The notes under the pieces were generated by a model. It was not told the origin of the DNA. It saw nothing but the letters and a program-made list of their open reading frames with translations, and ran no database searches. Of a stretch of 44,704 bases of DNA, positions 20,607 through 39,511 are shown one piece after another (positions within the stretch are counted from its first letter, which is position 1; each line of letters opens with the position of its first letter). A program made the position numbers and the translations under genes. This DNA is from Anaerolineae bacterium (GTDB lineage: Bacteria > Chloroflexota > Anaerolineae > S140-20), in assembly GCA_034435435.1 (NCBI GenBank), contig DAOTXN010000147.1, forward strand, positions 1 to 44,704, given 5' to 3'.

Positions 20607-20613
20607 GGGCAGC

Positions 20614-23819: not shown

Positions 23820-24206
23820 CTACACCTGGCGGGCGACCCGCGCCGCCTCGCGCAGAGCTTGTAGATTGACGATTTCCGCGATCTCGAACTGGGGCGGGGT
23901 GCTCCCGGCCACGGGCCGCATCCACACCACCGCCGGAAAGTAGCCCATCCGCCCGTGCAGTTCGGGCAGCAGGGCGACCGCCGCCGGGGCATAAGCCGGG
24001 GGGTTGATCAGCAGCGGGAGGGTCTGCCACTCCTGGGGCGTCAGGTCGGCGCGGTCGGCGATCTCGGCGATCTGTTCAGCCAGCGGGAGGTCGTGGGTGA
24101 TGTGCACTTGCACGTCGATGACGCGCGCGACGGGCTGGCCGGTCAAGGCTTCGACCTGAGCCAGGTGGTCGGGGGTTAGCGGGTGGGCAAAGTTGAGGAG
24201 GATCAT
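23820..24206 (-). CDS. Hypothetical small protein (128 aa) co-operonic with the membrane-CARF gene
   Basis: ORF with a 4-bp overlap (ATGA) to the upstream RQC-like gene. No assignable motif. Confidence 0.4.
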   Translation of the reverse strand: MILLNFAHPLTPDHLAQVEALTGQPVARVIDVQVHITHDLPLAEQIAEIADRADLTPQEWQTLPLLINPPAYAPAAVALLPELHGRMGYFPAVVWMRPVAGSTPPQFEIAEIVNLQALREAARVARQV

Positions 24207-24844
24207 TTGCGTTGAGCGGGCCGGTCAGGATGTGGGAGCGGCTGTTCGCCTAACGTGTGCAAGGTGTGGTTGATCGCCGTGCGTAGCTTGCGCACCTCGC
24301 GAGCGAACCAGGTTCGCAGCATGGGGGCCAGGTCGCGTCGCTGGCGCTGCTCGATAGCCTGGAGCAGCAAAAGCTTGATGTCGCGGTGAATCGTCTCCAG
24401 CCGGGGCCACACCCGGTCTGGCTGGCCGGCCCCTTCGACGGAGCTCAAGGCGGGCGCCTGCCACTCTTCGAACCAGCCCAACAGCCGCTCCACCCACAGC
24501 GCCTTGACCCGTTCCCAACCCTGTGGCGAGTGGTAGAGCAGGGGGACGTCGCGGTCGTATTCGATGCGCAGCCAGTGATGATAGATGCACCAATCCACCT
24601 TGCGGGCGATTTGCTCGGCGGTGAGGTGTTGCAGCGCGCCATAGTCGGGCAGTTGGTCCCACTCCCACTCTAGCGCTTTTTTGCTGCGCGAGCCGTTGAG
24701 GATCAGTGTCAACCCGCTGCGGCCGGCTGCGCCGACAATGGCGTCGGCAGCCATCAAGATGGCGTTTATTTCGTCCTGGGCCGGCGGTTCGGCCGGCAGG
24801 ACGAGGGTGACGGGGATGGGAGAACGTTTACGACGGCGGGGCAT
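24203..24844 (-). CDS. RQC-like winged-helix domain protein (RecQ C-terminal-like), 213 aa
   Basis: LILNGSRSKKALEWEWDQLPDYGALQHLTAEQIARKVDWCIYHHWLRIEY resembles the RecQ RQC winged-helix signature (..L.GS....I......L..YG.......W...I..LI..G.L). The call rests on that motif pattern only. Confidence 0.35.
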   Translation of the reverse strand: MPRRRKRSPIPVTLVLPAEPPAQDEINAILMAADAIVGAAGRSGLTLILNGSRSKKALEWEWDQLPDYGALQHLTAEQIARKVDWCIYHHWLRIEYDRDVPLLYHSPQGWERVKALWVERLLGWFEEWQAPALSSVEGAGQPDRVWPRLETIHRDIKLLLLQAIEQRQRRDLAPMLRTWFAREVRKLRTAINHTLHTLGEQPLPHPDRPAQRK

Positions 24845-25280
24845 CGTTGTTCTTGGCCTCGGTAAATTCTTCCAAGAGCCGCTGGCTCATTTCCAACACC
24901 AGCGTCGCCTCTTTCAGGGCCTCGTCCGCGTCAAGCTGGGAAAAAATAACCTGGGGCGGCAGCGCCAACTCTTCGTCGCCGTAGATACTTACTTCCCTGT
25001 CCTTGCGCAAGCTCCTGGAAACGTGAATCAGGCGGTCCAACTGGGCTTGAAACCACGGGGGAAACAATTCCCGGTTTTCCCGCATAAAGAAACCCACGTC
25101 GTGCACTCTGGGGACTTCGAGACCCACGAGCCTCAAAACGGCCTTGAGGGCCATCTCGACACACTCTTGACAGCGCCGGACGGCCAGGTGCCACACGCCA
25201 TCGCTTTGAGCCATCCTGGCTTGCTTGAGGGAGTATGCAGCGGTCACGAGATAGCCCTGCGCCATTTCTTCGTTGGTCAT
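24828..25280 (-). CDS. HEPN-domain protein (toxin-like partner of a minimal nucleotidyltransferase)
   Basis: 150 aa, helical. R-x4-6-H candidate in EVPRVHDVGFFMREN. 4-bp overlap with the upstream MNT gene. Confidence 0.55.
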   Translation of the reverse strand: MTNEEMAQGYLVTAAYSLKQARMAQSDGVWHLAVRRCQECVEMALKAVLRLVGLEVPRVHDVGFFMRENRELFPPWFQAQLDRLIHVSRSLRKDREVSIYGDEELALPPQVIFSQLDADEALKEATLVLEMSQRLLEEFTEAKNNDAPPS

Positions 25281-25804
25281 AGCTCGATCACCTCACCCCA
25301 GCGGTAATCGGGTTTCAGCCTCCAATACCGCACACGGCCCTGACGTACCCTTTGGGCGCCTATCTCGCACAATCTTTGCGCCAGTTGATCCAGGATGGTT
25401 TGAAAAAAACCACTCTGGTCATACAAGATGATAGCGTCTTGAGTCAAGTCCAGGTAAAGAGGCGTAAAGCTTTGCGCCTCCTCGGGCGTCTTGATTTTGG
25501 TTGAAAAGTCGGTGTGAATTCCCTGACGGTGCAGGGAGATCAAATGGGGCCAAAGTTCATCTTCAATCTCTACCAGAAGGCGATTGCGGGCGCGGCGTGA
25601 CGCGGGCAGTTCCCTGGCGACGATGAACAAGTCTACGTCGGAGGTGAACGTGTGCTCGCTCCGCGCTACCGAGCCGTACAACACGACGGAGACCAGGCGC
25701 TCGCCGAAATGGCGTTTCAGCGCCTCGGTGTAGGCCTGGGCCGCTTCTAACGCTGACCAGGCGCCCCTGTTTGGGTCCTGTGGCACAGACATGGCATTCC
25801 TCAA
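25277..25804 (-). CDS. Minimal nucleotidyltransferase (MNT/Pol-beta superfamily) partner of the HEPN protein
   Basis: GS-x9-13-DxD motif: VVLYGSVARSEHTFTSDVDLFIVAREL. Confidence 0.65.
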   Translation of the reverse strand: MRNAMSVPQDPNRGAWSALEAAQAYTEALKRHFGERLVSVVLYGSVARSEHTFTSDVDLFIVARELPASRRARNRLLVEIEDELWPHLISLHRQGIHTDFSTKIKTPEEAQSFTPLYLDLTQDAIILYDQSGFFQTILDQLAQRLCEIGAQRVRQGRVRYWRLKPDYRWGEVIEL

Positions 25805-25900
25805 CGGGGATCATTCCCTTGTTCTCGGACCAATGTACCCTGCTTGGCTCGAGATGTCAAGTCTGGCAGCGCCCGGACAAGCGGTAGAGAGCAGCGTTAG

Positions 25901-26020
25901 CCCGCTGCGCTGGGCTGGTCGACGATGGCGGCGGTGGCCATCAGGATGGCGTCTATTTCGGCCTGGGCCGGCGGCCCGGCCGGCAGGGCGAGGGTGGCGG
26001 GGATGCGGCGGCGGCGGAGT
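25901..26020. repeat. Degenerate (~85% identical) copy of the 5' end of the RQC-like gene (24713..24841), lying between the Cas7-CSD gene stop and the MNT gene
   Basis: Direct alignment: CCCGCTGCG..GGC..ATGGCG..GGC.GCCATCA.GATGGCGT.TATTTCG.CCTGGGCCGGCGG..CGGCCGGCAGG.CGAGGGTG.CGGGGATG is shared by both copies in the same orientation. Confidence 0.7.
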
Positions 26021-26025: not shown

Positions 26026-28269
26026 TCAGTTTTTGATGCCCCGCACATTTTCGGCTTGCGGGCGACCTTGGTAGCTGCCAACTGTGTAACTCACTCTCTG
26101 CCCTACCTGCAACGATTTTCGCCCTGAGCCGACAATACCGCTGTGGTGAACACGGATTTCGCTGCCATCTTCCTGGGTAATAGAACCGATACCCCGATCA
26201 TCTAACCATTTCTTGACCACTCCGATCTTGGTTGCTGAAGAGGTCGTCTGTTTTATTTGTTCTCTTACCGGCGTGGGCGATTTGACCGGTTGCCCAGCGA
26301 CTGCAGCCAGGGGGTCGGGTAGCACAGGCCGATGCCTGAACCTTTCAAGCTCCATGTACTCTGTTTGCTGGGGCCCAGGCCACTCGAGTATCTTTAACAG
26401 CATTTGAATCCGTGGTACACCCGCCAAAGATGATGCGTTATTGCGCTCGTTCTGGTCCATGTGCGCCAGGACATATCGATCGAATGCCTGGATAAAGCAT
26501 TGGGTATCATCTGGCGTTTCTGCCCTGTGCCACACGGGAAGGATTTGGGCCTTCTCATTTTTACTGAACAGGCAGCTATAGCGACCCATTTCCTCTTTAC
26601 GAGCACTCAAATACAGTGTGGGTTGGAGATGGGCAGAACCCATGCCCAGCGGCTTGCCCATGCCCAGTTTGTGGCGATACTGCTTGTCCGCCTCACCTGG
26701 CAACGTCAAGGCCCAGAGCAAAGCCCCTAGCTCGAAATCGCGCAGGTTCTCAAAATGGATATGAAACTTGAAAGCCACTTTCGACCTGACCGGCTTGATG
26801 CGAGTGTATTGTTTGGGGTGGTCTGTCAATGCCTCCTGATCGAACTCTTGAATATCGTTTAAATTGACATTGCCCCGATGCCAGTAGAGTTTGTGGCCAC
26901 GAATGGTTGTTTTGTGAGGCGGGGGACTGGCATAGTGATCTAGTTGACTTTTATCATCTGGTTCTTGTTGAGTCAGGTAGTGCTGAAAACTAGTTGGCTT
27001 GGGCGAGCCAAGGATCTTTGGCGTGATTGGGTGTTGAGCCGTCCATTCAGCTTGCGCCGCAGGTTCTGACCGTGCATCAGTAATTATGACTCGGCCAGCG
27101 CAGGCGCGATCTTTTACAGGAATGGCATCACTCTTGGTGTAGCCAAAGATAGCCTCGGCCAAATCCCGCTCCGACTCTTTCCGGAGGTCAGGAGGGAGCA
27201 AATCAAGTGGGCTGTTCGGGTAGGGAAGCCGAAACATCTTGGTCGGACCGAAAAAGACCAGTTCACCGGCAACATCGAGCAGATAGAAAAGCGGATCACC
27301 GTCACTCAGTAGTTTTCGTGTGCCTGTACCCAGCCCGCGCGTGAGATCGCGATCTTCCTGGTAGATTTGCCACATCTCGTCAGAAATGGGCACCCATTTG
27401 GCCGAAGGATCTGGCTCAAAGATGACACAGTGCCAATGTTTTTCGTGTCTTCCACCCATATGACCAGATTCGATCAGCGTACCAGGTACCATGCCAGGGG
27501 GTGCACTATGACTTCCGTGGCGAGCCGTTACCCTAGTAGTGATAGCGATATCAAGAATCAAGTCTCCCGGGCCTCGTTGACCACGGTTTTGAGATCCTCG
27601 AGAAGCGGGCTCTACAAACACATCGTAGACCCTTTGTGTCCCTCGTGACTCTCCCGTAATAGATCGGACGTTGTTGTACTCCACGTGTACGAACGATTCA
27701 CCGTTGTGCTCACTTACCGGTTGAATGGCCCACCCATTTGGGGTTTTCTTGAGATAGCCACCCTTGAGACGTGGAGAAGGATAGTCTAGATGCGTGGTCG
27801 GTGGCGCAGCCTTGTTTTTGCCCAGCATTTGCTCTCGATACCAGATTCCTAATGATGAAGGATCGCCTACTGCACGGTAGATGAGCTGTTCGCTGGTGAC
27901 CCACTGTACTTTGCCGTAGCCCACGATTTCCACCAACGATCTGATCATGCCACGCAGAGTGCTGCCCGGAATTACTGGACATTGGCCATCCACAGAGAAG
28001 AACTGAGCTCTTTCGTCTTTTACTTCTTCCGGCAGCTCGTGGAACGGCTTGTCGCCCCAGGCCCTGAAAATCTCTGGACTCATACCTGCCCGGGTGTATA
28101 GAGGCGATTCCGTGGTGAGCAGACATTCGATGTAGCCCGTATACCCGGCATAGACGTCTTGAGGTGGAATGTCATCAACCGTAACCACTTTTTCCGGCAA
28201 TGGAATAAAGTTATAGGGCGCGTGGGCTGTGCGATTTGACTGCTTGGGACTCTTGTGTTTCGGATTCAT
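26026..28269 (-). CDS. cas7: Large Cas7-family RAMP (Cas7 with a large insertion) with a C-terminal cold-shock domain, 747 aa
   Basis: N-terminal HAPYNFIPLPEKV and G-rich loop VIPGSTLRGMIRSLVEIVGYG are typical of type III RAMPs. C-terminal 65 aa (KIGVVKKWLDDRGIGSITQEDGSEIRVHHSGIVGSGRKSLQVGQRVSYTVGSYQGRPQAENVRGI) matches the CspA-type cold-shock domain pattern. RBS GGAGGGGTGAAATG. Confidence 0.6.
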   Translation of the reverse strand: MNPKHKSPKQSNRTAHAPYNFIPLPEKVVTVDDIPPQDVYAGYTGYIECLLTTESPLYTRAGMSPEIFRAWGDKPFHELPEEVKDERAQFFSVDGQCPVIPGSTLRGMIRSLVEIVGYGKVQWVTSEQLIYRAVGDPSSLGIWYREQMLGKNKAAPPTTHLDYPSPRLKGGYLKKTPNGWAIQPVSEHNGESFVHVEYNNVRSITGESRGTQRVYDVFVEPASRGSQNRGQRGPGDLILDIAITTRVTARHGSHSAPPGMVPGTLIESGHMGGRHEKHWHCVIFEPDPSAKWVPISDEMWQIYQEDRDLTRGLGTGTRKLLSDGDPLFYLLDVAGELVFFGPTKMFRLPYPNSPLDLLPPDLRKESERDLAEAIFGYTKSDAIPVKDRACAGRVIITDARSEPAAQAEWTAQHPITPKILGSPKPTSFQHYLTQQEPDDKSQLDHYASPPPHKTTIRGHKLYWHRGNVNLNDIQEFDQEALTDHPKQYTRIKPVRSKVAFKFHIHFENLRDFELGALLWALTLPGEADKQYRHKLGMGKPLGMGSAHLQPTLYLSARKEEMGRYSCLFSKNEKAQILPVWHRAETPDDTQCFIQAFDRYVLAHMDQNERNNASSLAGVPRIQMLLKILEWPGPQQTEYMELERFRHRPVLPDPLAAVAGQPVKSPTPVREQIKQTTSSATKIGVVKKWLDDRGIGSITQEDGSEIRVHHSGIVGSGRKSLQVGQRVSYTVGSYQGRPQAENVRGIKN

Positions 28270-28270
28270 T

Positions 28271-28843
28271 TCACCCCTCCAATCCTACCAAACGGCTCAG
28301 GGCGATATATGCCTGGCCTTCCTCATCATAATCCACGTAATGGCGCACTTTGAGCGCCGGTCGTCGTTTCCCTTGCGGAATCACCGGCGGCGCGTGGCGC
28401 TGGCCCTGTTTCCCTTCCTGGAGCAGGGCGAAGCCGGTCTGTTGGTCTACTTTCACCGGGTTGCCCAGATGCCAGAGCAGGTGTCTCTCGTCTGGCAGCG
28501 CCTTCAATGTGAGGTGGGTATCTTTTATCAGACGAGCGACAAACCCCTTCTTCGTGCGCCAGACCAGCAGTTCTCCCGCCGGGCCAAAGATGCGCGCTTG
28601 CTGCAAGGTCACCGCCCGTAACGGCACGGCGACCGAGGGAAATTCTTTGGAATCGCTGAATACGTCGCTAGAAAGCGCCAAAGTCCCATCGGCCTGCCGC
28701 TTACCCCAGATGACGCCATCGTCGGCGTGGACGAGCAGCCAGGGCATCCCTTCATCCACTCGCTGCGTCAGCCAGGCGCGCGGGTCGCTAACCAATTCTG
28801 TCAGTTTTTCTTTGTCTATCGATATGCCATAGTGCTTGCTCAT
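28271..28843 (-). CDS. Small beta-rich protein inside the RAMP gene array (possibly Csx19-like accessory subunit), 190 aa
   Basis: Translationally coupled on both sides (TGAaATG downstream, 4-bp overlap upstream). Sequence is beta-strand-rich (GVIWGKRQADGTLAL, ELLVWRTKKGFVARL), unlike helical Cas11. Confidence 0.35.
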   Translation of the reverse strand: MSKHYGISIDKEKLTELVSDPRAWLTQRVDEGMPWLLVHADDGVIWGKRQADGTLALSSDVFSDSKEFPSVAVPLRAVTLQQARIFGPAGELLVWRTKKGFVARLIKDTHLTLKALPDERHLLWHLGNPVKVDQQTGFALLQEGKQGQRHAPPVIPQGKRRPALKVRHYVDYDEEGQAYIALSRLVGLEG

Positions 28844-30282
28844 GCGTTCTGACCCTCCTTGTGAGCGTGGAATGCCGCCACGAAATCTTCCAGGGCTTGC
28901 GACGCACCATCGCCACCAAAGTGTAAGGTCTTATTCTCGCCCTGTGTCAATTCCCAGGTTGTGGTCTGCCCCGGCGTGCGCTGTGTCAACTTTGCCGAGC
29001 GGCCTGCCAGCCGCCCCCGCCCCACGCTGCTCTCACCACCCAGGGGCAGGTCGCCGGTCCACAGGTCTTTGAGCACCAGCAGCAACAGACCGATTTCCGC
29101 CGCTTGGGGCTGACGCAATTCCAGGTGGACACGCACTTGCGATCCCGGGCCGCCGAAGAGCGGCTGCTCGGAAAAGAGCGCCTGGGGATAGGCCCCGCCA
29201 GTAAAGCGGTCGATCTTGACCCGGCTCTGCACCAGGTCGAGATTACCTTTGACCTCGCTCTCATAAGTGACAATGCGGCTGCCCGCCGGTTTGTCCTCGC
29301 TCCCTTTGATGAGCGGGCCGAACATGCCGTTGACTAGGTCCTTGGCCTTGTCTTCCGGCAACAACGTATTGGCAATCCGCTGCGCCCGCGCCCGCACTGC
29401 ACCTGCCAGGCTGGTGCCGGACAGGATGGGAACCGGCTTCCTATTGCGCGGCGATTGCAGATGTACCATATCGGGGTCGTCAGGATCGCCGGAACTGGAG
29501 CGGATGAGCAGGGAGCTTTCCAGCGCAAAGGTTGCATCAAGGGTGAAGCGGACGCGATTATCGGGCAATGCTTGCGCGTCGTCCCCCAACAGGTCGCAGA
29601 TCTTTTCGCCACGCATCTCACCGGTGGCGTCGTTGTTCAACCAGGCCAAAAGCCCTTGCTTCGTCGTGACCGGGTAGCGCCGCACGCGCCACTCGGCGAC
29701 CTTGCACTGCCCCAATCCGCGACGTTTGCGCATTCCCAGGCCGATTTCGCCGCACTCGAGGCCGTGCAGGGCCAGGGCCAGGCTTTGCAGCAAGTCGGCG
29801 CCCCGGTTGTCCTCCGAAAGCAGCAACTCCAAAGAGAGTTCGAACGTCGTCCCGGCTTGAAGCAACTCGATGTCGTACTTTTTCTTATCCGCAGCAGTGC
29901 GAGTTTTGGCCTCGAGGGCCACGCCGTCGCGGATTTCGACGCCCGGCGTCTCGCCCAGGGCATCGTCCACCAGCAGCCAACTCTGCACACTTTCGTTGCC
30001 GCGCACCGTGCCGAAGAGTTGTCGCGCCCGATCATTGGGGCGCTCGGCGCCGCCGTAGCCGTGTTCTGCCTCACGCACGTAGGCGCGCAGCGCGCCCGCA
30101 ATGGACGTGCCAGTGAGCAACGGTTTGCCCGTCACACTATCCAACAGCAAGGGCATATCGGTGAGCGCCTCGGCATCCCCGTTGCCAAGATGCGCCGGAG
30201 TTTCCAATACCAACGTACCCTGGATAAGCACCCGCTCAATGATCTTACGCCCGGCGCGTCCTTCTACTTCATAGCCATTCAT
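28840..30282 (-). CDS. cas7: Double Cas7 fusion (Cas7-2x) RAMP, 480 aa
   Basis: Two G-rich-loop signatures in one polypeptide: PLLTGTSIAGALRAYVRE and VPILSGTSLAGAVRARAQRI. Confidence 0.6.
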   Translation of the reverse strand: MNGYEVEGRAGRKIIERVLIQGTLVLETPAHLGNGDAEALTDMPLLLDSVTGKPLLTGTSIAGALRAYVREAEHGYGGAERPNDRARQLFGTVRGNESVQSWLLVDDALGETPGVEIRDGVALEAKTRTAADKKKYDIELLQAGTTFELSLELLLSEDNRGADLLQSLALALHGLECGEIGLGMRKRRGLGQCKVAEWRVRRYPVTTKQGLLAWLNNDATGEMRGEKICDLLGDDAQALPDNRVRFTLDATFALESSLLIRSSSGDPDDPDMVHLQSPRNRKPVPILSGTSLAGAVRARAQRIANTLLPEDKAKDLVNGMFGPLIKGSEDKPAGSRIVTYESEVKGNLDLVQSRVKIDRFTGGAYPQALFSEQPLFGGPGSQVRVHLELRQPQAAEIGLLLLVLKDLWTGDLPLGGESSVGRGRLAGRSAKLTQRTPGQTTTWELTQGENKTLHFGGDGASQALEDFVAAFHAHKEGQNA

Positions 30283-31889
30283 GCGCCCACCTCCTGGTCA
30301 GGTTTCTGGTTCTGGCGGATCGCCTTTTTCATCACACCATCAATGAGCCGCGCTGTGTATTTCACCCGCAATTCGGGCGTGAACGCCGCCCGCTGACCTG
30401 CGACGGGGGATAAAGACTGTCCTTTTAAGAGTTGTTGCTGGATGTCTTGCTCCTGCAGCCGGGCCTCGAGCCAGGTCAGCAGGGGAAGGCCCGCCACGCG
30501 CGCCTCCTCGAATTGCCCCTTCGCGCCCTTGAGGGCGGCCAGGTGCACGCGAATGGGAGTCAGATCCCCTTCCCGCAGCGCTTGGCGCGCTGCGTTGCGC
30601 ACCCGCGAAAGCTGCGCGTTCTGTGGCTGGCGCGAGATTTGGATGCCGCTGATGGCAGCCGTCAGGCCCCGTTCCAACAGGTTTACCAAGTGGTTTTGGG
30701 CCATCCGCTGTGCCAATGCCAGACCTTCCTCAGAAAGGTTTGCCTTGGACGTTAATGCTTGACGCGCCCATGGTCCCCAGGCTACAGTATTCGCCGTGTG
30801 CCAGTTGACCGCGATGCGCCCAAACCCCTCGGCTCGTCGCTCGCCGATACCGGCTGCGACGAGATCGCGTAGTTGTTCAGCATCTACCTGCGCCGCGTCA
30901 TAGACAAAGACGCTGCCCGCTTGCAAGACCCAGGTTTGCTCCAGCGGTAACCCCCACTTGCGGTTAAAGCCGCCCACCAATCCCACGCGCTGATACTTGC
31001 GCCGGGCCTGCAGGTCTGGCAAGTCTAACAAGTCAGCCAGCATCCCATCCATATCGGCGCTGAACTGCCCGTCTGACCCGCGCAGGATGGCATCGCTCAG
31101 CAACGTGACGATGACCACGTCACCCGGCGCAGCAGCGGGTGCGTATTCCGTCCAGTTTTCAACCAGGGCCAGTGTTTCTATTTGTACGTGACCATAGCCG
31201 GCCGTGTGCGCGCCGCCCAAGAAGAGATCGGGATTCCCTGCTAGCAAGGTGTGCAGCAGCTCCAGGTCAAAGTCATCCGGCGCGATGATGGCGCCGCCCA
31301 GCACTTCCCCCGCCGCCAACGCATCGTAGCGATAGACCTTGTTTTCCTCGGTGCGGGTGTTCGCTTTGACCAGCGCGATGTGGACGTTTACCTCACGCGC
31401 AGGAGTGTAGAACTTTGTTTGTGGCGGCTCAGGTTCTTTGCCGACAGCAAGCGCTTCCAGTGCTTCCTCGGCGGATAGTTGGGGCGCTTCGGGCATGGTC
31501 AAAACGCAAAAATCGGCATTCTTGGGCGGTTTGGGTTGCTGCAATTGAATGGACGCATCCACTGCCCAGTCGTAGAATGTCCCGCTATCATCTCCCGCCA
31601 AATCCTTCTCCGTGAACCACGAAAGAGGGCGAGGCAAAAGCCGTTTCCCTTCGGGAGCAGGATAGGCATTGAGGAAAGCCACTGTGCCATCCAGAAACAA
31701 CGCACGAGTCTCGGCGTTTTTCGCCAAGTCGCCCGGTTCCTCATCTCGCAAATAGCGCGCGACCACCGCACCGCGCAGGGCGCTGCCCGGCACAAAGGGC
31801 AGGCCGATGGCGCTGTTCTCCTCGCCGGTTTCGGCTTGGGAGACCAGCACCGGTTCCAGCAAACGTAATTGATAGGTCAGGGCTTTCAT
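30279..31889 (-). CDS. Large RAMP-superfamily protein (536 aa). Cas7-like N-terminus, possibly a Cas5-group/Csx10-like or fused subunit.
   Basis: GLPFVPGSALRGAVVARYLR G-rich loop near the N-terminus. 4-bp overlaps with both neighbours. Confidence 0.5.
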   Translation of the reverse strand: MKALTYQLRLLEPVLVSQAETGEENSAIGLPFVPGSALRGAVVARYLRDEEPGDLAKNAETRALFLDGTVAFLNAYPAPEGKRLLPRPLSWFTEKDLAGDDSGTFYDWAVDASIQLQQPKPPKNADFCVLTMPEAPQLSAEEALEALAVGKEPEPPQTKFYTPAREVNVHIALVKANTRTEENKVYRYDALAAGEVLGGAIIAPDDFDLELLHTLLAGNPDLFLGGAHTAGYGHVQIETLALVENWTEYAPAAAPGDVVIVTLLSDAILRGSDGQFSADMDGMLADLLDLPDLQARRKYQRVGLVGGFNRKWGLPLEQTWVLQAGSVFVYDAAQVDAEQLRDLVAAGIGERRAEGFGRIAVNWHTANTVAWGPWARQALTSKANLSEEGLALAQRMAQNHLVNLLERGLTAAISGIQISRQPQNAQLSRVRNAARQALREGDLTPIRVHLAALKGAKGQFEEARVAGLPLLTWLEARLQEQDIQQQLLKGQSLSPVAGQRAAFTPELRVKYTARLIDGVMKKAIRQNQKPDQEVGA

Positions 31890-32554
31890 CCTTGCACCGC
31901 CTTTCGGAAGCTCGCAAAATGAGTTTCGGTCAGCGGTTCACCGCCCGGGGCAAAGAGCTCCGCCTGCACCCGCCCGCGCCCACGATTGCGCCCGGTGCCG
32001 ACACGTCGCAGCGCTTTGACCGTGGCTGCGAGCAGGGCCAGATCGTCAGAGTTCGGCTCTTCGCTGAAGATGAGTTGCGCACTGAACACGATATCGCGGA
32101 GGATGACCCGCATCGTGCGCAGCGTCTCTTTGCGCGGCGCGCCGCTCTCGTCCATCGCGGTCTGGCGGCGTAGCGTGGTCAACATGTCGAGCACATCGCT
32201 GCGCGTCAGAGTCTTTTTCTCGATGTCACGGGACAAGGCCGCCTGTAAGTCGCGCGGCAGGCGGGCCGGACCAACACGCATGATGGCTTCTCCTTCCAAC
32301 CGCGCCCCGCTCTGACCAAAGAGGCGGGTTGCAGCCCGTTGCCAGCGCGTTTTTTGATCTGGGAGGGCTTTACTCAGGGCATGGACCAGATCGTCGCACT
32401 CTGCGCCCAAGACGCCCTTGAGCGCGCGCCCACCGAGATAGGGTAGGCCGACGGCGTCGTGTTGTACCTCCACATCCACCAGACCGGCCACGCCATCGCC
32501 GCGCCCAAAGGTAGCATCACTCAAGAGGGTCAGTTTGAGTTGATAGACTTTCAT
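31886..32554 (-). CDS. cas7: Cas7 (Csm3/Cmr4-like) RAMP, 222 aa
   Basis: MKVYQLKLTLLSDATFGRGDG...GLPYLGGRALKGVLGAECDDL matches the Csm3-type N-terminal strand plus G-rich loop. Confidence 0.55.
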   Translation of the reverse strand: MKVYQLKLTLLSDATFGRGDGVAGLVDVEVQHDAVGLPYLGGRALKGVLGAECDDLVHALSKALPDQKTRWQRAATRLFGQSGARLEGEAIMRVGPARLPRDLQAALSRDIEKKTLTRSDVLDMLTTLRRQTAMDESGAPRKETLRTMRVILRDIVFSAQLIFSEEPNSDDLALLAATVKALRRVGTGRNRGRGRVQAELFAPGGEPLTETHFASFRKAVQG

Positions 32555-34066
32555 CGTGTTATTTCCTCCTCCAATGGGACAAAAAAGTCCAGCGCCTCCA
32601 CTGCGTCAAAGTAGCCGCAGCGCCCTCCTTGCCAGCCCTGCCCCGCCATCATGGGCAGGCTGCTGATTTCCGGTAGACGTTTCAGATCGGGATACGCGGC
32701 GAGGAAATGCTGCACCGCCTCACGCCCGCCACGCAACGCCTCCCGCAGTGCTTTGACCTTGTTGCGCCGTCCGGCCCAGGAGCCATCTCCATCCTGGAAG
32801 GCCGCCATGATCCGTGTAAAAGTTTCCCATGAGCGCCAATCGCCATTGGGTGGATTTAGCCGCACCGGGCGCATGAGCAGGCTATCGTCATGCACGGTGT
32901 ATTCGCGCTCTCGCACCTCTTTCAACGGCAGCACCAGCCCACTCACGGCAAAGTGCCAATCCAGGGCAGTCAAGCGATCTTTGCCGATATAGCCTTTGGC
33001 CGAGGCTGCCAACGCTTCGGCCAGTTCGTAGGCGCGGGAGAAGGGATAGTGCGATTTGACCACAGCCACACCCGCGCGGGCGTGCGCCTGTTCCTTGTCG
33101 GAAAGGATCTGCTCCGAGAAGACCCGCAGATAGTGCGCGGCGACTGCTAGACCCAGCCGCCCTTCGCAGACGAAGGTGACGTCATCCCCGCCAAAGACGA
33201 TGGGGCGGAAGGGCAAATGATCCACTCCCTTCTTATGCGGGCAAGGCACACGACCTCGTATGCGTTTGCTCACTTGGCCCTTCTCATCCTCAACCTCTTT
33301 GACCGCATCAAACAGTAAATCTACGGTGCTGGCAAGGGCTTTATCCGCTGCTGCTTTTACCGAGTTGGAGAAATTTTTCAACGCCTCACAGTAGTCCTCG
33401 TCGCTCCTTCCCACCAATCCCTGGATACGCTCGCCCATACGGTTGCCGTCGGTGTGGATGATGGCCAAGTAACTGGATTCACCCTTGGTCCCAAAATCAC
33501 CGAAATCATAGACAAATTCATAGCCCTGCTCGGTGAGCCTGGATAACTTTCGGCGAAGCTGGGCTTTGCCGTCTTCAGTTGCGCGTAGTTTGGCTTGCAC
33601 CTCGGCGGAAATCAGTTGCCCATCGTCGTTGGTGCCGACTGCCGGCGCGCCGGTGTAGACGCAGGCAGCGGTGACGCCCAGGCCCAGGAGCGGCGTGGAT
33701 GGGCGGCGGTTCAGTTTGCGTTGGGCCAGTTTGCCACGCAACGCCTGGTGCGTATCGCGCAACTGCCCCGACGCGAAAGTCTGCCGCGCTACGACCAGTT
33801 GCAGGCCGGGCGCGTCTTTGAGCGCCTGGTAGGTCAGCTCGCGAGCAAAGGTGTCCGCCTGTACCTCGGTATCAAAGAGCAACATGGCGTTGCCGCCGCC
33901 GGTGTAGACACGCTGTTCCGGCGTGGTCCGCGCCGCGACCCAATCCTCTGTGGCCTGGCGCACCAACTCCGAAGCGCCGATGTTCTGAGCCAGTTGGTTG
34001 CTGCCAAAGATGTAGTTCTGGATGCCGGAAGCTTCCACCAATAACAATGTTTTCTCTGTCATCATC
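32551..34066 (-). CDS. cas10: Cas10-like large subunit lacking an HD domain but retaining the cyclase GGDD motif (type III-D-like), about 505 aa
   Basis: Palm-domain motifs LLLVEASGIQNYIFGSNQLAQNIGASELV and PIVFGGDDVTFVCEG. No HD motif at the N-terminus. The ATGATG start at 34066/34063 is preceded by AAGGAGGG, and the longer ORF start at 34104 is unlikely. Confidence 0.55.
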
Positions 34067-34104
34067 CCTCCTTGAATGAATGAACGAGAAAGCGAGTGAG
34101 CCAA

Positions 34105-35289
34105 TCAGCGAATCTGACCGGCAATGGCGATCCACTCGCGGAAGTGCTGCGCCAGATCCGGCAAATGTTCCCGCCCAAAGACGCGGATTTTACCCTGAGC
34201 GTCCCAAGACTCACTGACCTCATCTTGTAATGCTTGTGCCTGTTCCACACAACATACCACGGCAAAGCGCGCTTCGTCACCGCCCAATTGCCGGGCACGG
34301 ACAAAGGTCTCCATGAGATGATCCTTGGCGGACTGCGTGCGATCCGTCGCCATGCATGAAAGAGCAAACAACTGATAGCCCAACAATGCCGCCACGTCTA
34401 ATTCAAAACCACGATGACCAGGGCGCTTGAATTCCAATCCCATGCCCACTTGATGCAATCCCAACTGCGCGCTCAACGCCTGCAAATTCTCAAACACGTA
34501 TTCTTCCAGCCAGTCGGCAATGAACAACTTGGTGCAATTGGCGAGGTGGCCGTTTTTGCAGTTTAGTTCGTCGGCTACCCGCTGGGGCGTTGGCGCCACG
34601 CCACATAGCGCCGTAAAGGCAGCGATCACCGGCGCTAAAGCCGGGTATTCGGCCGCGGTAGGCAGCTGCGGATTAGCCTGGCTGAGAGTTTGCAGCCAGG
34701 TGCGCCATTGGTTAAAGCCCGCTTTCGTGCAATGTACCTCCACCAGCGACTGGCGCAAAATCGACGGCATGGCTGGCGGACGCTGTACATTCACTTCGTA
34801 GCCATGCAAGGCGAAAAGGGCCTCAAAATCCACTTGCACGCGCTGGCCTACAAAGATGTGCTGGGTGGGCACACCCGGCGCTTCGATGACGAAGGAGAGC
34901 GTGTCGGCATCCAGGTAGCTGAACACACCACGGGGATAGGCCGCGCGCAAGATGTGATAAGATTGCGCGGCCATCGATTTGCTGCCGCCGGTGTAGTTCA
35001 GGCCGATGCTGGCGTTAGGGCCGATCTCCCGCTTTAAGCTCTGTAGGCGCTGGGCGATCAACTGTGGATCGGACTTGGAGATTTCCCAGAGGGTTAGAGT
35101 CAGATCGCCGCGCTTTTTACGGATCTGTTCACTGAGCTGCTTGGCGATGTCAAAGGTTGTATTGGTATGCAGAAGATAGGCCACGCCGCGCTCTGCGGCC
35201 AGCAACAACGCTGCCACATAATTCGGCAGCGGGTTGGCGCCGACCAGGAGAAACAGCACATCCGTTTGGTAGGGGGAGAAATCGGCCAT
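34105..35289 (-). CDS. CARF-domain effector protein (Csx1/Csm6-like, possible C-terminal HEPN), about 394 aa
   Basis: CARF N-terminal strand-loop DVLFLLVGANPLPNYVAALLLAA and the LNYTGGSKSMAAQSY motif. C-terminal R-x5-H candidate (KIRVFGREH). ATG at 35289 (MADFSPYQ). Confidence 0.5.
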   Translation of the reverse strand: MADFSPYQTDVLFLLVGANPLPNYVAALLLAAERGVAYLLHTNTTFDIAKQLSEQIRKKRGDLTLTLWEISKSDPQLIAQRLQSLKREIGPNASIGLNYTGGSKSMAAQSYHILRAAYPRGVFSYLDADTLSFVIEAPGVPTQHIFVGQRVQVDFEALFALHGYEVNVQRPPAMPSILRQSLVEVHCTKAGFNQWRTWLQTLSQANPQLPTAAEYPALAPVIAAFTALCGVAPTPQRVADELNCKNGHLANCTKLFIADWLEEYVFENLQALSAQLGLHQVGMGLEFKRPGHRGFELDVAALLGYQLFALSCMATDRTQSAKDHLMETFVRARQLGGDEARFAVVCCVEQAQALQDEVSESWDAQGKIRVFGREHLPDLAQHFREWIAIAGQIR

Positions 35290-35322
35290 TGTTGTCCTTT
35301 TCAAAAACACCTGTTTGTCTGA

Positions 35323-36315
35323 CTAGTCCATTCCCTTATCGAGAACATACCTCCCCCCTCCCCACACCACCCCCTTCCCCACGCCCACCCACTGCCCCAG
35401 CCACAGGGCCGGCAACAGCGGGCGCAGATCTGCTTCCGAGGCATACCAGGCCTGACCCACGAATCCTTCCAGCGGCATTGTTCCGCCGCGCTGGCTGTGG
35501 CGGGTCTGGCTCATCCAGGTGGTCTCGTGGTGCTCCAGGCGCACCCCGTCGGCCAGGTCCAGCAGCGGGCCGTACTCGGCCTGGGGCCATTCGCCCGCGC
35601 CGTGCACCTCGCTCAGGATGCGCAGCCGGCGCACGACCGCCCGCGCCAGGGGCGCGAACTCGGGGCGGCGGGCCAGCTCGCCCTGCGCTTTGACCTTGAC
35701 CGGGCTGAGAAAGTGCAGGCGCAAGCGCGTGATTTCAGGTGCGCCGCACCTGACCCAGGTCTGGCCGTCGGCGTAGCTCACCGCCATTCCCTCTACCGGG
35801 TCGCCCTGCCACACACCATCCACGAGCAATGGGACAGTCTGGCCGTCCGGCCCGGTCAGTGCTTCCACCCGGCGTATCACAGCTTTCAAGCGCTCGCGGC
35901 CCATTCCGCGCTCGCCCCCCACCATCAGCGCCGCCACAAAGGCCGGCAGTTGCTGGATGGCCGCCGAACCGATGAGGGCCAATTCAAAACGAAACCAGTC
36001 GCCAACGTCCACCTCACGCCGGCGGTCCTGATTGTCCCACAACGCGTAGCCCGGCGGCGGGGTGGGACCCATCAAGCGTTGCAGCGCTTGCGACCAGGAG
36101 GGGTCGGGCTGGGGTTCCAGCAAGAATCCGAACAGACACTGGCGGGGTCGTTGGCAGCCGTTCCGGCAACGTTCGGGCTGCCGGCACCAGAGGGTCCCCA
36201 GATACCACAGCAAGGCCCGGCGCAGCAGGTCGCCCTTGTAGGGTGGCAGGCGGGCGGGAGCGGCCACCTCTAGCTCGAAGCGCAGGCGCATCAGGCGCAG
36301 TTCCGATAACATATC
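35323..36315 (-). CDS. cas6: Cas6-like CRISPR RNA endoribonuclease (330 aa)
   Basis: C-terminal glycine-rich loop GVGKGVVWGGGRY (G.G.....G.G pattern). N-terminus MLSELRLMRLRFELEVAAPARLPPYKGDLLRRALLWYLG is Cas6-like. Position at the head of the type III operon. Confidence 0.5.
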   Translation of the reverse strand, partial: DMLSELRLMRLRFELEVAAPARLPPYKGDLLRRALLWYLGTLWCRQPERCRNGCQRPRQCLFGFLLEPQPDPSWSQALQRLMGPTPPPGYALWDNQDRRREVDVGDWFRFELALIGSAAIQQLPAFVAALMVGGERGMGRERLKAVIRRVEALTGPDGQTVPLLVDGVWQGDPVEGMAVSYADGQTWVRCGAPEITRLRLHFLSPVKVKAQGELARRPEFAPLARAVVRRLRILSEVHGAGEWPQAEYGPLLDLADGVRLEHHETTWMSQTRHSQRGGTMPLEGFVGQAWYASEADLRPLLPALWLGQWVGVGKGVVWGGGRYVLDKGMD

Positions 36316-36655
36316 AGACCCCTTCCCTGCGCTGCGATGCCACCGGCAAAAAGTCTGACGGATGGTTGAGCAGCAAGACCACGCGCGCGGGCTGGAACAC
36401 GCTGATGGTTTGAAGCAAGGGTTCAATGGAATGGCCCACCGGAAAGGCCAGAGTATCGCAAGCGGGGAATTCCAACGCGCCGCGCTGTTCGGCGTAGCAC
36501 AGCTCGGCCGGCAGCAGGTGTTCTACGTACCAGGCCATGCGCTCGGCCAGGGCGCCGCCGCATTGCCAGTATTGTTGTGTGCGCTCGCGCAGCGCGGCGA
36601 TGCTCAAGTCGCCGCAGGCCGCGTGAGAGGCCCACCATCGGAATGAGGAGTGCAT
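36314..36655 (-). CDS. Hypothetical 113-aa protein, first gene of the minus-strand cas operon
   Basis: ORF with RBS AGGAGA. 2-bp overlap with the cas6 start. No assignable motif. Confidence 0.3.
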   Translation of the reverse strand: MHSSFRWWASHAACGDLSIAALRERTQQYWQCGGALAERMAWYVEHLLPAELCYAEQRGALEFPACDTLAFPVGHSIEPLLQTISVFQPARVVLLLNHPSDFLPVASQRREGV

Positions 36656-36659: not shown

Positions 36660-37050
36660 GCTGTGTTCTCCTGTGCATCGTTTGTAACGGGACCCGGTTT
36701 GATTTGAAATGTCGTCGTTCGGTTAGAATGCTGTCAGCGCGGCGTCTGGCGCGATGCGGCGAGATGAGGTAAAATGGAATCAGAAAATGGGCCAGCCAGA
36801 CGTTCTTTGGAATGGCTGCTCCCATTGTACCATAATTCCCCGTTTGTGCGCAAGTTTTTGTCAAGCGCGTCACAGGTTCCAACTCTTTCAAACCAACTTT
36901 TTTTTCAACCGAATACAGGCTGTTTTCGTCGCGCTAGATAGAGACAGATAACGACCTGCTTTTGCGGGCGTGACCCCTCTCCCCATGCGCCCACGGTTTT
37001 GTGGCGCGCCGCGCAGCCGTCGCGCGACGGCTGCCCAGTAAAAATGAGGA
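36660..37050. promoter_or_regulatory. AT-richer divergent promoter region between the minus-strand cas operon and the plus-strand gene at 37059
   Basis: Marked local drop in GC (runs such as CAACTTTTTTTTCAACC, GTAAAATGGAATCAG). No long ORFs. Confidence 0.4.
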
Positions 37051-37058
37051 GAGTAGAA

Positions 37059-37997
37059 ATGTCACGTGCGAAAGCAAATGGGCGGCAACGTAGCGTACAC
37101 TGGAGCGCAGGCTTGCTGCGCCAGGCCGTAGAAGCGCTCTACATGCAACTGGTGGGACCGGCGGACGACGGGTGTGACCCAGGAGTCGTGGAGCACATCG
37201 TGCAGACGGGTATGCAGTCCAAGATATTGGAGGCGCTGCGGGGGCGCTATGACCCGGCCGAGGCCGTGCGCGATCTGTGCACGCGCTGCGCCTTTACCGC
37301 GCTGATGGTGCAAGGGCGGCCCCACCGCGAAATCGCCCCGCTGTACCAACGGCTGATCCAGGACACACTGAACCTCATCACCGAACGGGCAGAAGGGATC
37401 GCCCGGCGTACCGGCGAGAACCCGCTGGACGAGGACCCAGGGCTGCTGATCTCGCTGTGCAAGTGCCTGAGTAGCCACACCCTGCGCCAGCCGATAAGCG
37501 CCCACATCACCTGGAAGCTGGGACACTATGAAGGAGCCGTCAGCCGGGCCATGCGCCAGATCGAGAACCTGGCCAGGCACCCGCAGGTCGTGGAAGCCTT
37601 TGCGGCCCACGTGCTCGACTCGGACCTGCCCGGCGTGCTCAAGGCCCAGTTGCTGCAAATGGCGCGAGGCGGCGGGCGCACCGGCGTGAACCCAGAGTGG
37701 GCCATCCGCTTCTTCGTCCTGCCCGGCACGGTGGCGTTCGTCAAGGCCTTCGCCGGCGTCGTGCAGACGGCCCGCACGCTGTACGACGAGGAAACCTACG
37801 CCGGCGTCGCGTGGCGCGGCAAGCGCAAACTGCCCCGCGAGCGTCGCCAGGGCTACGTGGAGGCCGCTAGGCTATGCGACTCACGTAGCGCCCTCCCGCG
37901 GGTGTCCCGTCACTTGCGGGAGGGCGACGCTCGTCAGGAGGTGCGACGATGCACACCCATCCCGACTATTACACGGAACTGGTGCGGCGGCGCGTGA
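37059..37997 (+). CDS. Hypothetical protein, about 312 aa
   Basis: ATG at 37059 (MSRAKANG) preceded by AGGAGAGTAGAA, inside the longer ORF 36999..37997. Confidence 0.4.
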   Translation: MSRAKANGRQRSVHWSAGLLRQAVEALYMQLVGPADDGCDPGVVEHIVQTGMQSKILEALRGRYDPAEAVRDLCTRCAFTALMVQGRPHREIAPLYQRLIQDTLNLITERAEGIARRTGENPLDEDPGLLISLCKCLSSHTLRQPISAHITWKLGHYEGAVSRAMRQIENLARHPQVVEAFAAHVLDSDLPGVLKAQLLQMARGGGRTGVNPEWAIRFFVLPGTVAFVKAFAGVVQTARTLYDEETYAGVAWRGKRKLPRERRQGYVEAARLCDSRSALPRVSRHLREGDARQEVRRCTPIPTITRNWCGGA

Positions 37998-38320
37998 CCG
38001 GCGACCCGCCCCTGACCGCGCGCCAGCAGCACGAGCTGGACCTGCACCTCTACATCTGCGTCGAGTGCAATGACGAATATGCGCGACTCTTGGAAGCGCG
38101 CGCGCCGGCCGCGGCAAAGGCCCTGCGCCGCGACCTGGAGAGTCGCCTGACCGCCGATATGATCACGCCGTACCTGCGCGACCTGGCGCTGACTCTCTTT
38201 GCCGGGCAGCCGTTAACGGATTTTCAGTTGATCGTGTGGGGTTTTGTGCAGCGCGACCCGGAGGCCCTGGGACGCTTTCGCTTGTTAGAGGCCAGCGTGT
38301 GGCTGGAGAGGGATGTGTAG
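37949..38320 (+). CDS. Hypothetical 123-aa protein with a possible zinc-finger (CVECNDEY)
   Basis: ORF overlaps the previous gene's end in another frame. Annotation is weak. Confidence 0.3.
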   Translation: MHTHPDYYTELVRRRVTGDPPLTARQQHELDLHLYICVECNDEYARLLEARAPAAAKALRRDLESRLTADMITPYLRDLALTLFAGQPLTDFQLIVWGFVQRDPEALGRFRLLEASVWLERDV

Positions 38321-38380
38321 CCAGGCAGCGATTTGTGGTATAATCTATGCATCGATGTGAACGCGTATGTGAGGAGGGAT

Positions 38381-38620
38381 GAGATGATCGCCTGGGATGC
38401 CGTTCGATACGTAGTGGGAGCCGATGGCCGTCCCACAGCCGTTCAAATGGATCTGGAATTTTGGCGGCAGATCCTGGCTGTGCTCGAGGATGCTGAGGAC
38501 GTGGAGATAGCGCGGGCGGCGTTGGCCGAATTTGACGCGGCCGGCGGCGATCCAGAAAAAGCAGGTTGGATACTATTGGAGGACCTCGAAAAAGAATGGG
38601 AGATCGATGACGCGCTATAA
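38381..38620 (+). CDS. Type II antitoxin-like small acidic protein, partner of the RelE/ParE toxin
   Basis: Small acidic protein (MIAWDAVRYVV...EDLEKEWEIDDAL) overlapping the toxin start. Extended -10 TGGTATAAT at 38336-38344 upstream. Confidence 0.45.
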   Translation, partial: EMIAWDAVRYVVGADGRPTAVQMDLEFWRQILAVLEDAEDVEIARAALAEFDAAGGDPEKAGWILLEDLEKEWEIDDAL

Positions 38621-38912
38621 GGTCTACGTTCTCCCTTCCGCAGCGAAAGAGATCGATCGTCTACCGGGCCACATTCGACAACGCGTGCGTCAGGCAGTAA
38701 AGGAACTAGCCCGAGATGTTTATCCGCCGCGCAGCAAACGTTTGGACTACGAGCTCAAGTCTGGATGGGAGCTTGGGCGCTTGCGCCTGGAAAGCTGGCG
38801 CTTGGTTTACGTGATTGACCGAGAGTGGGATCGCGTATTTGTGTTGACCGTCCGCAGGCGACCGCCCTATCAGTACGACGACCTGGATCAGCTTCTATCA
38901 GACGTAGAATAG
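38607..38912 (+). CDS. RelE/ParE-family toxin
   Basis: MTRYKVYVLPSAAKEIDRLPGHIRQRVRQAVKELARDVYPPRSKRLDYELKSGWELGRLRLESWRLVYVIDREWDRVFVLTVRRR matches the RelE/ParE fold signature (..K.L..L.......I...I..L...P.....K.L.G.L....RLR.G.YR..Y.ID.....V.VL.V.HR). Confidence 0.6.
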   Translation: MTRYKVYVLPSAAKEIDRLPGHIRQRVRQAVKELARDVYPPRSKRLDYELKSGWELGRLRLESWRLVYVIDREWDRVFVLTVRRRPPYQYDDLDQLLSDVE

Positions 38913-38974
38913 CCCATTGAAAAAATACGCATCTTTGCGTGGCGCCCGTCCCTGGCTGGGACGGGCGCTTGTGT

Positions 38975-39479: not shown

Positions 39480-39511
39480 GACCACAGATTTGAATTTTCA
39501 GGAGAAAGCGC

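Follow-up and report, generated by a model that had tools for sequence, protein, structure and literature searches.

The type III-Dv CRISPR-Cas effector of Synechocystis retains the GGDD motif of Cas10 and an active site involved in cyclic oligoadenylate (cOA) signalling (PMC11026444). Its small subunit Csx19, which was described as unique to types III-D1 and III-Dv, is needed for assembly of the complex, and its Cas7-insertion subunit holds the exposed 3' seed of the CRISPR RNA (crRNA), with residue F767 of 795 stacking on the crRNA (PMC11026444). The III-D2 effector cleaves its target at one site and makes SAM-AMP and SAM-AMP2 (PMC13294483). Among the accessory proteins of type III systems, clade 1 Can2 nucleases are encoded in type III-D loci, are activated by cyclic tetra-adenylate (cA4) and carry the motifs NxTGGTK and E-ExD-SxTTS-K (bioRxiv 10.1101/2023.09.18.558242), and Cam1 is a CARF effector which depolarises the membrane (PMC10808066). 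Here we describe a locus in a stretch of 44,704 nt from an Anaerolineae bacterium (GCA_034435435.1, contig DAOTXN010000147.1, positions 1-44,704), which as a whole is called the window in the following. The operon at 26026-36655 is, with high probability, a type III-D interference module which targets RNA and signals via cyclic oligoadenylate. The subunit set, structure and signalling logic of such modules were known before, and dozens of sequenced species carry the operon; its unusual feature is a cold-shock domain (CSD) tethered to the C-terminus of the Cas7-insertion protein, and it is otherwise ordinary for III-D.

Composition and conservation of the operon

Gene identities were determined with three libraries of hidden Markov models (Pfam, NCBIfam/TIGR and the PDLC profiles of PADLOC), which gave concordant assignments (Table 1). 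A first-pass annotation of the same letters had listed nine open reading frames (ORFs), all on the minus strand and joined by ATGA overlaps; its coordinates proved exact, and overlaps of 4 bp were present at four junctions, i.e., Cas10/Cas7, Cas7/Cas5-Cas11, Cas5-Cas11/Cas7-2x and Cas7-2x/Csx19. The spacing at the other junctions was 0-12 nt, and such tight junctions fit a single translationally coupled operon. Homology of the ORFs is well above chance level, and the region is real. Profile classification of each ORF supported both the assignment to type III-D and the presence of Cas10.

The Cas10 protein had been described as lacking an HD domain while carrying a GGDD motif, and this was borne out. 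Its N-terminus is without an HD domain, residue 17 aligning with residue 17 of the HD-less Cas10 of Synechocystis, and the GGDD motif (residues 305-308, nt 33181-33192) does not lie outside the palm but within the Pfam Cas10/Cmr2 palm2 match (residues 212-379, 1.2e-10). Of 64 relatives, 56-57 have retained the motif. The stand-alone Cas7 can be aligned (2e-7) with residues 4-202 of 8s9t_A, the chain in which Cas7, Cas5 and Cas11 are fused, and its predicted catalytic residue D27, which is opposite D26 of Synechocystis, is an aspartate in 64 of 67 relatives. In Cas7-2x, D42 is aligned with D33 of Synechocystis, and D266/D271 with D241/D246; the predicted catalytic residues D42 and D271 are kept in 72 and 74, respectively, of 75 relatives. 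The Synechocystis residues aligned with these Cas7 and Cas7-2x sites were mutated in the III-Dv study (PMC11026444). From the conserved aspartate sites and the GGDD motif, it is predicted that RNA is cut at three sites and that the cyclase is active.

No separate Cas5 or Cas11 had been evident on first inspection, and it had been proposed that both are hidden in the 536-aa (amino acid) protein. Several lines of evidence show this proposal to be correct. A single-sequence search matched the Cas5 part of the protein to the middle of 8s9t chain A; the Csx10 model TIGR02674 was matched with 4.2e-38 (131.5 bits, under the equivalog cut-off of 177.3); and a profile built from 45 homologues aligned to residues 378-779 of 8s9t_A (3e-20), which span the Cas5 and Cas11 domains. 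The AlphaFold model (mean confidence score, pLDDT, 85.7) has a RAMP body, residues 387-535 form a helical bundle, and a Foldseek search with this model returned 8s9x_A/8s9t_A on top (4e-22), followed by Cmr3 and Csm4.

The proposed III-D composition with Cas7-2x, Cas7-insertion and a Csx19-like protein is confirmed by profile matches and by the best PDB matches, which are to 8S9T (chains A, C, D and E), the assignment of Csx19 resting on TIGR03984 and PADLOC, as a phmmer search with this protein against Protein Data Bank (PDB) chains gave no match. The further proposal of a fused, III-Dv-like architecture holds in part: Cas5-Cas11, Cas7-2x and the insertion-bearing Cas7 were found as expected, but the Cas7-Cas5-Cas11 triple fusion is missing and Cas7 is a separate protein.

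The ORF that had been called Cas6-like was confirmed as Cas6; its true start is probably the ATG at 36312 (329 aa), while the mechanically determined ORF reaches to a TTG at 36426. This gene starts 1 nt past the stop codon of the first ORF of the operon (113 aa), of which residues 21-98 match positions 5-81 of the 496 positions of PDLC01809 CARF_HEPN (2.5e-16). Since only this part of the profile was matched and cas6 is directly adjacent, the 113-aa ORF represents an N-terminal CARF fragment, probably the leftover of a gene of the Csx1/Csm6 type that was cut off where cas6 starts. No homologue of it was found among 82 related loci.

An alignment-based scan with one genome per species yielded at least 574 loci with relatives of Cas7-insertion, the best 80 of which were examined; a genome scan with a single protein query had given no confirmed loci. 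The examined loci belong to Chloroflexota (many of them Anaerolineae), Methanosarcina and other archaea, cyanobacteria, Acidobacteriota, Bacillota and others. The order can2-cas10-cas7-cas5/11-cas7x2-csx19-cas7ins is kept in about 68 of these 80 loci, and Cas7 and Cas5-Cas11 are separate in 67 of the 68, fusion being found only in a metagenome-assembled genome of Salinibacter. Likewise, nearly all of the best 120 of 1127 matches to Cas5-Cas11 were stand-alone proteins of about 505-540 aa, covering 98-100% of the query. Given the split in 67 of 68 loci, the window shows the common form of this lineage, and the III-Dv triple fusion is the exception. Dominance of separate Cas7 and Cas5-Cas11 proteins bears on the stepwise path of fusions which was proposed to lead from III-D1 to III-E.

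Two CARF proteins accompany the core genes. The 401-aa protein had been taken for a soluble CARF/HEPN-like protein; the CARF domain was confirmed, whereas no HEPN match was obtained, and strong matches to PD-(D/E)xK, Card1 and Can2 models identify it as a nuclease of the Can2 type instead. In the PDB it matches TbrCan2 (8q3y, 1e-20) and Can2 (7bdv, 1e-3), and it retains the CARF motif NYTGGSK and the residues E, ExD and K of the nuclease (WLEEYV, FELDV, SAKDH). The second protein, encoded downstream of the operon, had been predicted as a membrane-anchored CARF protein, and it is indeed a homologue of Cam1: its translation begins with a hydrophobic stretch of about 50 residues, and the CARF domain is C-terminal. 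A full-length Cam1-like orthologue is found right after csx15 in the related locus L082, and many related loci likewise have csx15 downstream of their operon.

Taken together, the following course of events is proposed. Cas6 would cut the precursor crRNA, and one crRNA would be held by a complex, of putative stoichiometry, consisting of Cas10, Cas7, Cas5-Cas11, Cas7-2x, Csx19 and Cas7-insertion, in the set and order of III-Dv with Cas7 separate. A complementary transcript paired with the guide would be cut at up to three sites, namely by Asp27 of Cas7 and by Asp42 and Asp271 of Cas7-2x. Binding of a non-self target would activate the GGDD palm of Cas10 to make cyclic oligoadenylate, most likely cA4; cleavage of DNA by Cas10 itself is not expected, since an HD domain is missing. 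The messenger may then activate the Can2 nuclease and the Cam1-like membrane protein, encoded upstream of cas10 and downstream, respectively, and the expected outcome would be degradation of single-stranded nucleic acid and depolarisation of the membrane, leading to growth arrest. The CSD, which a flexible linker of some 45 residues connects to the seed-holding subunit, might assist near the seed in capturing or unfolding target RNA.

Several observations weigh against this interpretation. The NCBIfam equivalog cut-offs were missed for Csx10, Csx7 and Cas10. Residues 318-322 of the Can2-type protein read SCMAT in place of the SxTTS of clade 1, and the exchanges T358A and T359A disrupt the activity of TbrCan2 (bioRxiv 10.1101/2023.09.18.558242); in relatives of the window protein this substrate motif is mostly SCTT[SDAG], with some SCMVT and SCIAT. 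No CRISPR array was detected in the window with Tandem Repeats Finder, a direct-repeat search and a k-mer chain finder, and with no array or crRNA visible in the window the activity of the locus is putative. The insertion of a pair of MNT and HEPN genes (see below) and the fragmentary first ORF show some local decay. In the CSD of the window most of the canonical RNA-binding aromatic residues (equivalents of W11, F18, F20, F31 and F34) are gone, and an RNA-capturing role of this particular domain may be weak or lost. Furthermore, the messenger is predicted from the effectors, and III-D2 makes SAM-AMP (PMC13294483).

The last point raises the question whether Cas10 could make a messenger derived from S-adenosyl methionine (SAM-AMP or SAM-AMP2), as in III-D2, instead of cyclic oligoadenylate. 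The III-D2 Cas10, which yields both compounds, is also HD-less and stems from the same broad lineage (PMC13294483), and the messenger of the window is a prediction from its genes. However, of the hallmarks of III-D2, i.e., Cas7x3, Cas7-5 and a CorA effector, none was present among the ORFs scanned; the catalytic pair which was mutated in III-D2 Cas10 is D347/E348, as compared to GGDD in the window; III-Dv 8s9t_C was the only solved Cas10 detected by sequence; and both accessory effectors are CARF proteins from families activated by cyclic oligoadenylate (Can2 by cA4). A SAM-derived messenger is therefore very improbable. Signalling by cyclic oligoadenylate, as had been suggested in the first-pass annotation, is the best reading, since Cas10 has kept GGDD and the two accessory proteins are homologous to cA4-responsive effectors; by the same token, cA4 is the most likely messenger.

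Table 1. Features of the CRISPR locus and adjacent genes in the window, with position, strand and principal evidence (E-values).
Feature	Position	Strand	Evidence
113-aa ORF, N-terminal CARF fragment	36314..36655	-	
Cas6 crRNA-processing endoribonuclease	35323..36312	-	PDLC01477 1.6e-66 (ORF residues 42-363); Pfam CRISPR_Cas6 3.3e-14
Can2/Card1-type nuclease, CARF + PD-(D/E)xK, 401 aa	34105..35310	-	PDLC01883 CARF_PDDEXK 4.4e-100; Pfam Card1_endonuc 3.7e-7
Cas10, III-D form, HD-less	32551..34104	-	PDLC02057 Cas10d 6.2e-123; PDB 8s9t_C 2.2e-22
Stand-alone Cas7, 222 aa	31886..32554	-	PDLC02113 Cas7_IIId 1.1e-72
Cas5 (Csx10 type) with C-terminal Cas11-like helical domain, 536 aa	30279..31889	-	PDLC02090 Cas5_IIId 1.1e-122 (residues 1-528)
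Cas7-2x, two fused Cas7 domains	28840..30282	-	PDLC02111 1.7e-133; Pfam RAMPs 3.1e-32 (two stretches); 8s9t_D 6.4e-27
Csx19, small beta-rich core subunit	28271..28843	-	TIGR03984 1.1e-32 (113 bits, cut-off 35); PDLC01430 3.4e-27
Cas7-insertion core (RAMP), residues 1-~655 of 747-aa protein	26230..28269	-	TIGR03986 1.2e-117 (395 bits, cut-off 161)
C-terminal CSD of Cas7-insertion, residues 681-744 + stop	26026..26229	-	Pfam CSD PF00313 8.4e-13 (residues 683-744)
MNT nucleotidyltransferase	25277-25804	-	Pfam NTP_transf_2 1.7e-8
HEPN protein	24828-25280	-	Pfam HEPN 2.6e-16
213-aa conserved accessory protein	24203..24844	-	Weak RQC-like winged-helix match, Pfam RQC 1.4e-5
Csx15 accessory protein	23820..24206	-	PDLC01376 Csx15 2.6e-40
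Cam1-like membrane CARF effector, 214 aa	23166..23810	-	PDLC01168 'CARF, 2 TMs' 4.7e-23; PDB Cam1 8t64 1e-12 (residues 57-199)
Cassette gene 1, unknown protein, ~330-400 aa			
Cassette gene 2, unknown protein, ~123-140 aa			
Cassette gene 3, CSD protein, 131 aa (131-137 aa in relatives)	38975-39370	-	Pfam CSD 1.1e-5, just under gathering score
Cassette gene 4, NYN-domain protein			
Cassette gene 5, 219-aa protein, true start near 41343			Weak bacHORMA_1-like N-terminus + canonical CSD
Cassette gene 6, RNase H-like protein			RVT_3
Cassette genes 7 onward, unfused: reverse transcriptase (RT)	42456-43346	+	Pfam RVT_1 1.4e-31
Cas1	43359-44222	+	Pfam Cas_Cas1 6.2e-63
Cas2	44281-44559	+	PADLOC Cas2 1.8e-25

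The variable C-terminus of the Cas7-insertion protein

The last gene of the operon encodes a protein of 747 aa, for which a C-terminal CSD had been proposed; Pfam confirmed this domain (Table 1). Residues 1-655 match PDLC02114 with 7.5e-173. By sequence, the strongest matches of this protein were chains of Cas7-11/gRAMP (about 1e-14), followed by 8s9t chain E with 6e-11, and a Foldseek search with the core of the predicted structure returned 8s9t_E first (1.3e-21), then Cas7-11. In the model a disordered linker (about residues 634-677, pLDDT <50) leads to a five-stranded barrel at residues 681-744 with pLDDT of about 90, which superimposes on CspA and CspB with template modelling scores of 0.85-0.91 and root-mean-square deviations of 1.2-1.8 Å. 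In the sequence of this domain (26038-26229), RGIGSI is found for the RNP1 motif KGFGFI of CspA, and IRVHH for the RNP2 motif VFVHF.

The tails of 199 Cas7-insertion homologues were surveyed; they were taken from protein and locus sets, and some may be duplicates. Behind the conserved motif RPVLPDP, 138 of the 199 proteins continue for 45 residues or more and 41 for less than 20. Clustering of the 130 non-redundant long tails gave a CSD group of 25 members, two classes of tails with S1 domains at the same position as the CSD (Pfam 5.4e-22 and 4.4e-5), several unassigned beta-rich domains, two helical families and basic tails rich in K and R. The tail is thus hypervariable across the family, consisting of a CSD, an S1 domain, another beta-rich domain, a helical domain or a basic stretch, or being absent altogether. 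CSD tails were found in Anaerolineae, Latescibacterota, Acidobacteriota, Salinibacter, Planktothrix and a DPANN archaeon. The aromatic core of RNP1 is kept in 22 and that of RNP2 in 21 of 24 CSD tails, the CSD of the window being one of the two exceptions, and retention of these aromatics in most tails points to selection for binding of nucleic acid.

Residue F767 of the Synechocystis protein, which is close to the C-terminus, contacts the crRNA seed, and by analogy the tail may emerge beside the seed. For the family as a whole, we infer that the CSD is a tethered binder of single-stranded RNA, which aids the capture or unfolding of target RNA near the seed. It could also be argued that the CSD does not capture target RNA at all, and that it binds the crRNA at its 3' end or has no role. 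The Cas7-insertion subunit of III-Dv holds the crRNA 3' end, and the length of mature crRNA is fixed (PMC11026444); about one fifth of the family is nearly devoid of a tail, and the core function can therefore do without one; helical domains or simple basic stretches occur at the same place; and the aromatic patch is absent from the CSD of the window itself. On the other hand, the canonical RNA-binding aromatics are under apparent selection in the CSD tails of relatives, as stated above, the independent gain of CSD and S1 domains at one position suggests a shared need for binding of single-stranded RNA, and a tether of some 45 residues seems better suited to reach past the complex than to hold an RNA end which is already buried. 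The objection carries appreciable weight, but we lean towards capture or unfolding of target RNA as the role of these domains in the family.

A wider notion, which we put forward tentatively and consider rather unlikely as a whole, is that the C-terminus of Cas7-insertion is a hot spot for repeated gain of interchangeable modules for binding of single-stranded RNA (CSD, S1, beta-rich or basic), which would be tethered next to the crRNA seed and there recruit or melt target transcripts, and that CSD proteins of this lineage may also serve adaptation. If true, the tail modules would provide a built-in RNA-chaperone or antenna function, which is undescribed for any class 1 effector. A literature search with a limited library yielded no description of a CSD fused to a type III Cas7, which is not proof of novelty. 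A hypervariable tail, which often is a true RNA-binding OB fold, leads to a testable idea of how effectors of fixed length might find their targets, and the tail is a possible handle for the engineering of RNA-targeting tools.

Adaptation genes, rearrangements and neighbouring genes

The region 36999-44559, mostly on the plus strand, is a conserved cassette with adaptation genes at its right end, which was found in identical order in three other contigs (L083, L084 and L086); in L083 a Cas10 gene is on the strand opposite to the cassette. RT and Cas1 share a frame with two stop codons between them (43344-43358, FDD*RG*TM), and the Cas1 match starts at profile position 72; either part of the usual N-terminal domain is missing, or a former RT-Cas1 fusion has been split. 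The CSD protein of 131 aa has the canonical motifs GYGFI and IFFH. The HORMA match of the 219-aa protein is weak (29 bits in Pfam as compared to a cut-off of 35.6), its best matches in the PDB being CBASS HORMA proteins with E=0.04; 84 homologues were found, mostly with 62-79% identity, and those few with a source name were from Anaerolineae. Three CSD-containing proteins are thus encoded within about 16 kb of one CRISPR locus. No paper joining RT-Cas1 to HORMA, NYN or CSD partners was found in a literature search with a limited library. The RT-Cas1 cassette with its CSD, NYN and RNase H-like genes represents a candidate accessory set for spacer acquisition from RNA, and besides the variable tail of Cas7-insertion it is the only part of the locus which might repay more work.

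A RelB-like/ParE pair and a DUF433 gene are located inside the adaptation cassette (38333-38912 and 39512-39880). Since the related cassettes lack them, these genes point to further insertions.

The contig ends 145 nt past cas2. Related loci have arrays nearby with repeats of 36-37 nt ending in ATTGAAAC or ACTGAAAG, and it is plausible that the array of this locus follows RT-Cas1-Cas2 just past the end of the contig. At 44602-44671, in the putative leader just ahead of the contig end, there are two short blocks of 9-nt tandem repeats that are reverse complements of each other, ACAGGATTT and ATCCTGTGA, each present three times.

Rearrangement is also evident on the other side of the operon. A direct repeat of 86 nt (87% identical, 24733-24818 and 25920-26005) flanks the MNT-HEPN pair, which resembles a toxin-antitoxin system. 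Orthologues of the 213-aa protein (64-70% identity) are located beside the effector operon in L006 and L039; in L006, MNT-HEPN is missing and the gene directly follows that for Cas7-insertion-CSD. From this arrangement it follows that MNT-HEPN was inserted in the window, with duplication of the 5' end of the 213-aa gene. A promoter-like site (25832-25860, minus strand, 10/12 matches) was found just upstream of the MNT gene; the counts in a promoter and terminator scan did not exceed the shuffled expectation. A GC-rich hairpin of 12 bp (23135-23161) lies after cam1, between converging gene ends.

With these data it can be considered whether the locus is a decaying or orphan III-D module which no longer confers immunity. 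The lack of an array in the window, the truncated CARF gene at the start of the operon, the MNT-HEPN insertion with its 86-nt duplication together with the RelB-ParE pair in the adaptation region, the degenerate RNP motifs of the CSD and the diverged substrate motif of Can2 could all be read in this way. However, the eight core genes are all intact, tightly coupled ORFs; the catalytic motifs which were checked are all retained; RT, Cas1 and Cas2 are intact, and a contig stop so close behind cas2 is typical for assembly breaks at a repeat array; and arrays with repeats of 36-37 nt are present near the loci of relatives. Decay to a module without function is in our opinion very unlikely.

The genes farther to the left comprise a tyrosine integrase (18131-19027, minus strand), an NYN protein (20019-20606), a 294-aa unknown ORF and a fusion of JAB and E1/ThiF domains of 572 aa (21386-23104), which converges on cam1; the region 18131-23161 could represent a module of its own for ubiquitin-like conjugation or defence. 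BREX-type genes (PglZ, 1339-3204; BrxL, 3235-4668) are followed by a histidine kinase with N-terminal S1 domains (4802-7108) and by response regulators with CyanoTRADDas_TM and TCAD9 domains (12017-14730), and the region 1-17680 also contains a multi-GAF hybrid kinase of 1499 aa and an SPFH protein. By its surroundings, the CRISPR locus seems to be part of a defence island.

Comparison with known systems

The III-Dv system of Synechocystis (8S9T-8S9X, Schwartz et al. 2024, PMC11026444) has the same subunit set and gene order as the operon of the window, and likewise an HD-less Cas10 with GGDD and three catalytic aspartate sites. For five of the six subunits its structure 8S9T gave the top match in the PDB: chain C for Cas10, chain A for Cas7 and for Cas5-Cas11, chain D for Cas7-2x and chain E for Cas7-insertion. 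The III-Dv complex is further marked by one copy of each subunit, a crRNA fixed at 37 nt and three cleavage sites, and for the window, conservation of the three aspartate sites could be shown. Structural alignments show low identity (about 18-20%), and there are several differences. Cas7 (222 aa) and Cas5-Cas11 (536 aa) are two proteins in the window and part of one triple fusion in III-Dv; Cas7-insertion of the window carries a C-terminal CSD, and the uncharacterised N-terminal domain of 112 residues in Synechocystis Cas7-insertion is apparently absent here, the RAMP match starting from about residue 18; and the accessory effectors are Can2 and Cam1 in the window, as compared to Csm6 and Csx1 in Synechocystis.

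The effectors themselves also have described counterparts. TbrCan2 (8Q3Y, Jungfer et al., bioRxiv 10.1101/2023.09.18.558242) shares with the window protein the CARF and PD-(D/E)xK domains, the motifs NxTGGxK and E/ExD/K and its origin from a III-D locus; in the window the gene is immediately upstream of cas10, and the substrate motif is SCMAT versus SxTTS. Cam1 (8T64, Baca et al. 2024, PMC10808066) is, as the window protein, small with an N-terminal transmembrane part and a C-terminal CARF domain, at low identity; the PADLOC model has two transmembrane helices.

The III-D2 system (Mitsuda et al. 2026, PMC13294483) has related RAMP domains (9wxh_D, 7e-14 and 8e-13) and an HD-less Cas10. In contrast to it, no Cas7x3, Cas7-Cas5 fusion or CorA was present among the ORFs scanned in the window, where CARF effectors are found, and the Cas10 motif is GGDD here and D347/E348 there. 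In the III-E proteins Cas7-11/gRAMP, the C-terminal insertion-bearing Cas7 is homologous to the core of the window Cas7-insertion (PDB 1e-14; Foldseek 3e-20); III-E is a single polypeptide without Cas10, Cas5 and Csx19 and is accompanied by the protease Csx29, whereas the window has separate subunits and CARF effectors. The gRAMP models scored 82.6 bits on window proteins as compared to a cut-off of 700 bits.

Type III-D1 systems (e.g., SsoCsm, 8BMW) have, as the window, a Csx10-type Cas5, several Cas7 paralogues, Csx19 and the same overall gene order; sequence matches to the chains of 8BMW were marginal (E about 1). The operon of the window differs from III-D1 by the Cas5-Cas11 fusion, the Cas7-2x fusion and the terminal Cas7 with a large insertion. 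The operon is therefore of type III-D and nearest to III-Dv, but with an unfused Cas7, and its state of fusion lies between III-D1, in which all subunits are separate, and III-Dv.

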